From assembly GCF_003704095.1 (NCBI RefSeq), contig NW_020846942.1:310001-374000 (forward strand): 64,000 nt of DNA, in the 5' to 3' direction. This stretch comes from Pocillopora damicornis (Eukaryota). Positions 23,977 through 25,392 of this stretch are shown here, in pieces. Every line of letters begins with the position of its first letter. Positions within the stretch are counted from its first letter, which is position 1. Under the pieces are notes generated by a model. The model ran no database searches and was not told where the DNA came from. It worked only from the letters and a program-made list of their open reading frames with translations. The position numbers were made by a program, and so were the translations under genes.

Positions 23977-25392
23977 TCAGAAACTTTTGCATGACTTACT
24001 GATGGTTAAACTTTCCACAAAATGCGCAAAATTAGCACCATTTAAGGCAGCGCGTTTAGGACTGGCTTTGGCGAGTTTTTGTACCCTTATTGGGCCGTGC
24101 TCGTCATCAGTGGTGTTGCTTATGGCGTGTGTCAGTTCATGAACTATAATGCCCATTTTACTGTAATAACCAGTTTCCGTTTTCTGGTCGCTGAACAGTT
24201 TACAGAGGTAAAAAGTGCAAGCTCCATGAAAACTGTATGCCAGGGTTTCGTTTGAACATTCATCCCCTCCAAAATGAAACGTTTTATGCCAGTTGTCATC
24301 TACTATTGCAACAGTTTTCTTCAACAGAATTTTTGCGTCCTCAGTGGCTGTACCAAACCAAGGTTTTCCCTTTGCGGGATTATCTTTAAGACATTTAATG
24401 GCTGATTTCATGTTTTGGACCGCAGCCTCGAAGGCTTTTTTTGTTTCTAATTTTAAGGCTTCGGGCGCCACTCCCACAAAATGCTCCAGTTTGGGACAAG
24501 ACTCGTCTTCCGAAGAAGAACCTCTCATGGAATATTGATTTGTTCTTTTGAGAGGGCGCGCTCTTTCGCTGAAGGTTCCCTCAATGAAGCTTCCTTTGGA
24601 AACTTCGTAACTTACAGCAGGGGAAGATAAGTGTTCTATCTCAGTTTGGGTAAACCGCACGTCAGATAACCTACCCGCTACATATTCTAAGTAAGTGTCC
24701 ACTGCTATAGAGTAGAGACCGGCTTTAGTCATGTCGTACGCATCTGAAACATCGAACGTAGATGACACCGTTTGTCCAGCTTTGACGAGCAAGTATTGAT
24801 CAGGGCCTGGAGCGGAGCGCTTCGGGTAAATACCATCGTATTGTAGCTTCTTGCCATTGGTAGTGACTGTCAGACAATCTGATCTCAGTCCATCCAGCGG
24901 TGTACGCCATTTAAGGACTAAATAGTCTTGTTTACCGTTGTTTCTCAAATGGAACTGACATTCAATCTTGCCAGTAGTTCGATATTTCGGTGCACAAAGG
25001 AGCCGGGAGGAGAAGATCCTGCGTAAAATATAACTCCAATCATTAGTTGTAGCTCTGGCTTCATTTACGTTTTCATTGCTCCACCACACACAAAAGCAAA
25101 TACGAAAGAAAACGTTAATCTGACACTTGTCTTGGCGTAGTAGATAAAATACCATGGAGCTCATCAAGTGATCAGAACCCTTACATTGATTTATAGAATG
25201 ATCTGGTCTTTGGCATTCCCCTCTATGGGTACCGGTAATTCGAATGGAAAGCTGTATTTTTGTTGAATCCTTATATATTAATTTTCTACGATAGAAGAAG
25301 CCTCCTCTTTACCTGTGGCCAGAGGTGTGAAGACGAGCGCTTTCTATACCATTCGTCAGACCCCAAATCAAAAGAATCCATAGAAACTTCAT
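23977..25392 (-). CDS. M35 aspzincin preproprotein, paralog B (~373 aa), divergent active-site surroundings
   Basis: Exon1 25392-25313 MKFLWILLIWGLTNGIESA, phase-2 intron, exon2 25018-23977. HELTHAISNTTDDEHG and ALNGANFAHFVES. The ORF-track start at 25167 is intronic. Confidence 0.88.

Follow-up and report, generated by a model that had tools for sequence, protein, structure and literature searches.

The described proteins closest to the coral gene reported here are Lys-N of Grifola frondosa (GfMEP; MEROPS M35.004; PDB 1g12), AsaP1 of Aeromonas salmonicida (M35.003; PDB 2x3a-c), deuterolysin of Aspergillus oryzae (PDB 1eb6) and, by fold, the Pra1 zincophore of Candida albicans (HRXXH family; PDB 9n47). 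GfMEP, whose residue numbering is used here as counted on the alignment, is made as a prepro-protein and holds zinc by two His and one Asp, beside a catalytic Glu. Hori, in 2001, is said to have found the Lys held by Asp154 and Glu157, with Phe83 in the pocket wall, and Fushimi, in 1999, reportedly found the matching Asp to be needed in deuterolysin. For AsaP1, loss of the Tyr is said to have inactivated the enzyme in the hands of Schwenteit in 2013, and Bogdanovic, in 2016, reportedly saw a pro-peptide Lys fill the S1′ site.

The family motifs were taken from PMC12924839 and PMC7215534. According to PMC11985622, the Tyr three residues past the zinc Asp is the proton donor and Glu157 sets specificity, E157D adding cleavage before Arg. 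PMC3268031 has Asp154 hydrogen-bonded at 2.7 Å to zinc ligand His117 as its second-shell partner, and PMC12663325 describes Pra1 as an M35-fold protein that lacks the Glu and binds zinc.

We analysed a window of 64,000 nucleotides of Pocillopora damicornis (contig NW_020846942.1, positions 310,001 to 374,000). Three M35-type HExxH motifs were found in it, all on the minus strand, belonging to paralogs A, B and E. B shares the fold of GfMEP (Z 19.7, rmsd 2.0 Å over 156 residues), its His/His/Asp zinc ligands, its catalytic Glu and its prepro organisation, but is an animal gene with introns, is 24% identical, and has Tyr133, Asp154, Glu157, Tyr158 and Phe83 replaced. Among solved structures AsaP1 is the best sequence match of B (E 3e-18), and the match spans the pro-domain and the catalytic domain of the same two-domain zymogen; unlike B, AsaP1 has the canonical Tyr, Asp and Glu. 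An apparent B-specific placement of the pro-domain against AsaP1 (rmsd 17 Å) was discarded, as the predicted model of canonical E deviates too. Deuterolysin has the fold seen in B (Z 17.3) and shares with it an Ala at the position of Glu157, but, unlike B, still has the Tyr and the second-shell Asp. The coral 'extracellular protease-like' M35 paralogs (Pocillopora, Acropora, Oculina, Orbicella, Desmophyllum) have the family and gene structure of B, with 33-50% identity to it; nearly all of them keep Tyr, Asp (or Glu) and Glu, and the B signature occurs in none.

Pra1 matched B by fold with Z 12.1. Its site is HRxxH with a third His, compared with HExxH and Asp in B and HQxxH and Asp in the counterpart of B in Stylophora, described below; Pra1 has lost the catalytic Glu, whereas B keeps it and only the Stylophora counterpart has lost it. 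A search of B with PF13933 (HRXXH) gave no match at E 0.1. The fold match was rejected as a sign that B is a zincophore, because canonical E is equally close (Foldseek E 4.6e-4 vs 4.9e-4), and Pra1 is a precedent for B, not a relative in function. With respect to M35, B has HExxH, the Asp of GTxDxxYG, domain PF14521 and the fold (Z 17-20 to three solved members) and lacks the Tyr of GTxDxxYG, and the Stylophora counterpart lacks HExxH. The acidic S1′ pair of Lys-N (M35.004), Asp154 and Glu157, is Ala and Ala in B. B is therefore classed as an M35-fold homologue and not as Lys-N.

Gene structure and transcription of paralog B

Paralog B is an intact M35 (aspzincin) gene of three exons, part of a tandem array and encoding a prepro-protein of 373 aa (Table 1). 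All of its motifs lie in one open frame that ends at 23977. PF14521 scored 57 bits against a Pfam cut-off of 30, and the structure model reached a pLDDT of 91.6. A public 373-aa protein is the exact spliced form of B, with seven differences, all in exon 3. The B stretch is present in 20 sequencing runs from 9 studies, 11 of the runs being on record as RNA. Both splice joints were seen in three of four RNA runs, each from a separate study; the remaining run showed no B splice joint and a contig spanning intron 2, for which contigs cannot separate intron retention from assembly path. B is transcribed and spliced, and is without pseudogene character. The protein is predicted to be secreted.

Paralogs D and E are carried by an inverted duplication (33571-36836 / 37611-40432, 84-87% identical), and the runs of N in the window mostly measure 100 bases, as scaffold gaps do. 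In one RNA run, the one without B splice joints, a contig (28427-29080) covers copy C, which has the pro-domain alone; the free pro-domain of C could act as an inhibitor or a chaperone. The neighbours in the window are a Med14 exon (5784-6428), a fibrinogen-C domain gene (16509-17585) and thioredoxin-like domains (49000-60000) that, going by their Pfam families, would belong to a UGGT-type gene.

Table 1. Features of the M35 cluster (positions are those of the window)
Feature	Position	Strand	Basis or remark
Paralog A, two coding exons, HELGH..DLAYG..NAENYE	20140..21590	-	
B exon 3, coding part: pro-domain, linker, M35 domain	23977..25018	-	Pfam PF14521
B mature M35 domain	23980..24483	-	fold match to GfMEP 1g12
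New C-terminal Cys common to B and Stylophora	23989..23991	-	1/128 relatives
NGANFAH: Asp154 to Ala, Glu157 to Ala, Tyr158 to His	24022..24042	-	alignment
B DDEHG motif	24108-24094	-	
His replacing Tyr133 (proton donor)	24097..24099	-	alignment
Third zinc ligand Asp (GfMEP Asp130)	24106..24108	-	invariant in 130 aligned rows
HELTH with both zinc His and the catalytic Glu, unaltered in B	24127..24141	-	
New Cys common to B and Stylophora	24217..24219	-	1/128 relatives
Leu at Phe83 position	24241..24243	-	Tyr or Phe in 105/128 relatives; Ile in Stylophora
New Cys common to B and Stylophora	24496..24498	-	0/128 relatives
B pro-domain, Ig-like beta-sandwich	24555..25017	-	structure model
B conserved pro-peptide Lys	24822-24820	-	Lys in 118/128 relatives; Arg in Stylophora counterpart
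B intron 2, 294 nt, GT..AG, phase 2	25019..25312	-	joint in 3/4 RNA runs
B exon 2, start codon ATG at 25392; N-terminus hydrophobic, resembling a signal peptide	25313..25398	-	signal peptide by eye; N-terminus as in spliced-type protein P0102
B intron 1, 163 nt, GT..AG	25399..25561	-	RNA contigs and sequence
B 5′ untranslated exon, start approximate	25562..25588	-	contigs from 3/4 RNA runs join 25562 to 25398
Paralog C, pro-domain alone, then stop	28606..29024	+	
Frameshifted remnant of another copy, past N gap	31633..32006	+	two frames against P0068
Paralog D, signal exon and pro-domain, cut by N gap	36125..36836	+	
Paralog E, canonical motifs, last codons enter N gap	36937..38334	-	98% identical to P. 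meandrina CAH3119097.1

Replaced residues in paralog B

B was aligned to GfMEP and AsaP1. The alignment was gap-free across the motifs beyond a two-residue loop, so the motif register is sure. His117, Glu118, His121 and Asp130 are all retained in B, the His of DDEHG stands at Tyr133, and the two Ala of NGANFA stand at Asp154 and Glu157. An earlier, sequence-only reading of this DNA had described these motifs, with HELTH, the Asp ligand and the frame intact, and they were confirmed on the minus strand; the motifs it gave for A and for E were correct as well, E reading HELSH..DITYG..NADNYE in full. Beyond its list, B has Tyr158 changed to His, Ala153 to Gly and Phe83 to Leu, and has lost a conserved Cys that is present in 104 of 128 relatives and is also missing from the Stylophora counterpart. 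Tyr occupies position 133 in 114 of the 128 relatives, with His in B and Stylophora. The B signature was found in 26/152 aligned proteins, namely every B-like one (26 of the 26 listed), and HELTH likewise in 26/26; moreover, no variant in the four RNA runs falls on the signature. It is thus not due to chance or sequencing error.

The Stylophora counterpart and the B clade

The nearest relative of B outside Pocillopora is a cluster of eight sequences that includes S. pistillata PFX28969.1 / XP_022785090.1. Its pro-domain is 85% identical to that of B, its mature domain 55%. A tree built from 59 catalytic domains placed the Stylophora counterpart as sister to B with support of 100/100, while the joining point of the pair to the other coral paralogs was not settled in this tree. 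The stem of the pair measured 1.01 changes per site; its tips, at 0.40 and 0.37, were also long beside the median of 0.14. His133, Ala154, Ala157 and His158 are all present in the counterpart, which answers, for this relative, the question of the sequence-only reading whether orthologs conserve the His/Ala/Ala triad. The zinc motif reads HQLTH in all eight sequences, one of them from an NCBI genome, and the catalytic Glu is present in 128 of 128 other aligned relatives. The same Glu to Gln change was engineered into AsaP1, in structure entries titled 'inactive mutant E294Q', and occurs naturally in the Stylophora protein. Six of seven Logan members of the cluster read through the site of B's intron, and would thus appear to be transcripts.

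Three Cys and three His are common to B and its counterpart, each found in at most 1/128 relatives, and altogether 29 rare residues, the three Cys included, are identical in the two. Of 35 positions with a conservation of 80% or more, a threshold set on these same relatives, B and the Stylophora counterpart have each lost 9, compared with 0-6 in 55 coral relatives. A frameshifted B-type copy outside the window (P0375-P0378) is 55% identical to B, lacks one of the zinc His and carries Tyr at 133. Its support for membership in the B clade is 100/100, the branching order within the clade not being fixed by the tree. Given the 55% mature-domain identity and this third, broken copy, the relation of B to the Stylophora gene may be one of co-paralogy, with different roles, and not of strict orthology.

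Scans of JGI metagenome contigs found no counterpart locus. A search with the Stylophora domain matched itself alone, and a two-row profile search for the B clade returned two short proteins only; both methods require shared words, so that other genera may be missed. Matches in the ESM Atlas were M35 clusters only. P0155 was rejected as an extra relative of B, since its differences are all explicable by C to T conversion and it is probably a bisulfite-type artefact; records of such converted DNA can mimic divergent homologues.

Residue usage at positions 133, 154 and 157

Residues were tallied over 155 relatives, the matches among 216 representatives to a pattern that required E or Q at the catalytic place, with 61 unmatched proteins left out. 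Position 154 was Asp in 140, Glu in 9 and Ala in 6, and hence acidic in 149/155; position 157 was other than Glu in 43/155. In active deuterolysin, position 154 aligns as Asp and position 157 as Ala. Together with the hydrogen bond to His117, these observations indicate that 157 is the usual specificity switch and that the main role of 154 is at the zinc site. In B, 154, 157 and Tyr133 have all been replaced, and the combination of His133 and Ala154 was confined to the B clade among the 155 matched proteins. P0161, a further apparent case of His133, was a pattern error caused by an insertion. The sequence-only reading is supported in that B has lost the Lys-binding pocket; beyond its role in the pocket, Asp154 also bonds to His117. 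Its phrase 'three paralogs, three S1′ signatures' was overstated, as Glu154 of the kind seen in A occurs in nine of the 155 relatives with the charge kept. Judged from the alignments, this change in A is conservative and recurrent, and A is therefore not credited with a third specificity.

Paralog A clusters with P. verrucosa XP_058971896.2. It is the most variable of the three full copies in the window (26/165 sites, among the members listed), and the allele of the window (20140-21590) has Lys-Cys in the pro-domain where the family has Lys-Arg. A may be a relaxed copy.

Three unrelated M35-hemopexin proteins have Ala154, two of them (P0163 and P0243) with Ala157 as well; since all three keep the Glu and the Tyr, loss of activity does not follow from an Ala/Ala pocket as such. 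An MMP-like architecture, in which an aspzincin (M35) domain is joined to hemopexin repeats, was seen in P0016, P0030, P0039, P0058, P0062, P0064, P0066, P0157, P0163 and P0243. Such proteins occur in Oculina among others, with Cys, Gln, Asn or Ala at 157, and appear to be good candidates for active non-Lys aspzincins. In another coral paralog group, the P0069 cluster of 12 sequences, Phe replaces Tyr133 and the acidic pocket is intact.

Catalysis and specificity of paralog B

We consider, with a probability of roughly 0.55, that B is a retained pseudo-peptidase, or a very weak enzyme, of the M35 fold with a binding role. Splicing in three studies, a diversity as low as that of E and the three new Cys shared with Stylophora suggest constraint. 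Because Stylophora lacks the Glu and Asp154 is the second-shell partner of His117, the changes in the B clade would affect catalysis as well as specificity. Arguing the other way, the catalytic Glu is kept in B in all 26 listed sequences, and a His could take over part of the work, as His231 of thermolysin stabilises the oxyanion.

A possible but less probable explanation is that B is an active protease with an uncharged S1′ pocket (Leu/His/Ala/Ala) for neutral or hydrophobic P1′ residues, that His133 acts as a thermolysin-like proton donor, and that only the Stylophora copy died later. This would fit the HExxH and Asp ligand intact in 26/26 listed sequences, the fold predicted to be intact, and changes that cluster at the pocket and are common to two genera. 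Residue 157, which controls specificity (E157D; PMC11985622), also varies widely among relatives that retain Glu, Tyr and Asp, and Ala/Ala recurs with intact catalytic residues in P0163 and P0243. It is opposed by the missing catalytic Glu in the closest relative, and by the restriction of His133 with Ala154 to the B clade. The conserved pro-peptide Lys of B, presumably the counterpart of the Lys that reportedly plugs S1′ in AsaP1, stays Lys and did not turn hydrophobic, although the cause could be gene conversion in the pro-domain. Asp154, moreover, supports the zinc site (PMC3268031). The sequence-only reading had put a new P1′ specificity first, and this choice is weakened by the loss of Glu in 8/8 Stylophora sequences and by the role of Asp154 at the zinc site. 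Its second option, a weakly active decoy, fits better.

Diversity and selection

In 26 B sequences, among the members listed, 9 of the 169 sites of the mature domain vary and the mean distance is 0.016. The mean distance is 0.016 in E, 0.036 in A and 0.021-0.048 in three more paralog groups (again among the members listed, up to 15 per cluster). Coding variants of B in the RNA runs comprise 7 amino-acid-changing and 3 silent sites, a small number with a ratio that does not depart from neutral. The dN/dS ratio is 0.46 for B vs A, 0.33 for B vs E and 0.26 for A vs E, with silent sites near saturation. The three zinc ligands persist across about 1.8 changes per site of branch, the losses being catalytic helpers and pocket residues. 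The sequence-only reading would have been undone by a B that is unexpressed and evolving neutrally; spliced transcripts and a diversity as low as that of E were found instead.

The first 112 codons of the pro-domain (24680-25017 in B, 20845-21180 in A, 37645-37981 in E) are much more alike than the catalytic domains. Among A, B and E, dS is 0.43-0.55 in this stretch vs 1.3-1.9 in the catalytic domains, and it is probable that the pro-domains undergo gene conversion as the catalytic domains grow apart.

It is rather unlikely that B is a redundant duplicate under relaxed selection, slowly being lost, with its substitutions as damage. The long branches of the B clade, the higher dN/dS of B against A or E than between A and E, the several broken copies in the cluster (with one B-type copy frameshifted and short of a zinc ligand) and the 7:3 ratio of variants, which also speaks against constraint on B, could be read in this way. 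However, frame, signal exon, splice sites and zinc ligands are intact in both genera, spliced transcripts are present, the diversity of B is not above that of five canonical paralog groups (0.016-0.048, among the members listed), and the 29 rare residues with their three Cys are identical in Stylophora. That B cleaves before Lys as E does, the other outcome that would have undone the sequence-only reading, is very improbable, for although HExxH, the Asp ligand and the pro-peptide Lys are retained, both acidic residues and the Tyr are replaced, and even Glu to Asp at 157 alters specificity (PMC11985622).

Discussion

The duplication that gave rise to B took place within the M35 cluster of pocilloporids and predates the separation of Pocillopora and Stylophora, and B changed fast on its stem. 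The intact prepro-protein that it encodes has the fold of GfMEP and keeps the three zinc ligands. If B is a retained pseudo-peptidase, zinc would still be bound, but loosely, because the Asp bracing the first His ligand is gone. Without the proton-donor Tyr and the Lys-anchoring acids, and with a weakened zinc site, B would be expected to cut little or nothing. The catalytic helpers would have been lost on the stem, cutting would no longer have mattered, and Stylophora would then have lost the catalytic Glu. The weakest step is the last one, in which B would have been kept as a disulfide-stabilised extracellular binding protein. Within this account B would most likely be a decoy or binder working beside canonical A and E, which takes about two thirds of its weight, and about one fifth goes to a metal-binding protein.

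A more speculative view, which we regard as doubtful, is that the B clade parallels fungal Pra1 on the animal side: in pocilloporid corals a secreted M35 protease would have turned stepwise into a protein that holds or withholds metal. The zinc ligands would stay, two new His would stand beside the site, and new disulfides would stabilise the protein for mucus or gut. Catalysis would have been dismantled, completely in Stylophora and half-way in Pocillopora, and both genera would be living intermediates.

B is a real variant of a known family, conserved and expressed, and probably a pseudo-peptidase. As pseudo-peptidases from tandem duplicates are common, it is not a new kind of system. A full-text literature search, with most subscription papers and the supplements outside its scope, returned nothing on these genes or on coral aspzincins.

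As a pseudo-peptidase, B would hint at a secreted binding role not yet known from this intensively studied reef coral, and canonical E, B with its Glu and Stylophora without it would form a rare natural series for the stepwise loss of catalysis. If B instead cleaves through a neutral pocket, it would represent an aspzincin in which His donates the proton, and proteomics would gain a candidate for a new N-terminal protease. For the family as a whole, since residue 157 varies as widely as the tally indicates, databases that label all such relatives 'Lys-specific' are probably wrong for many of them, and this may be more useful than B itself.
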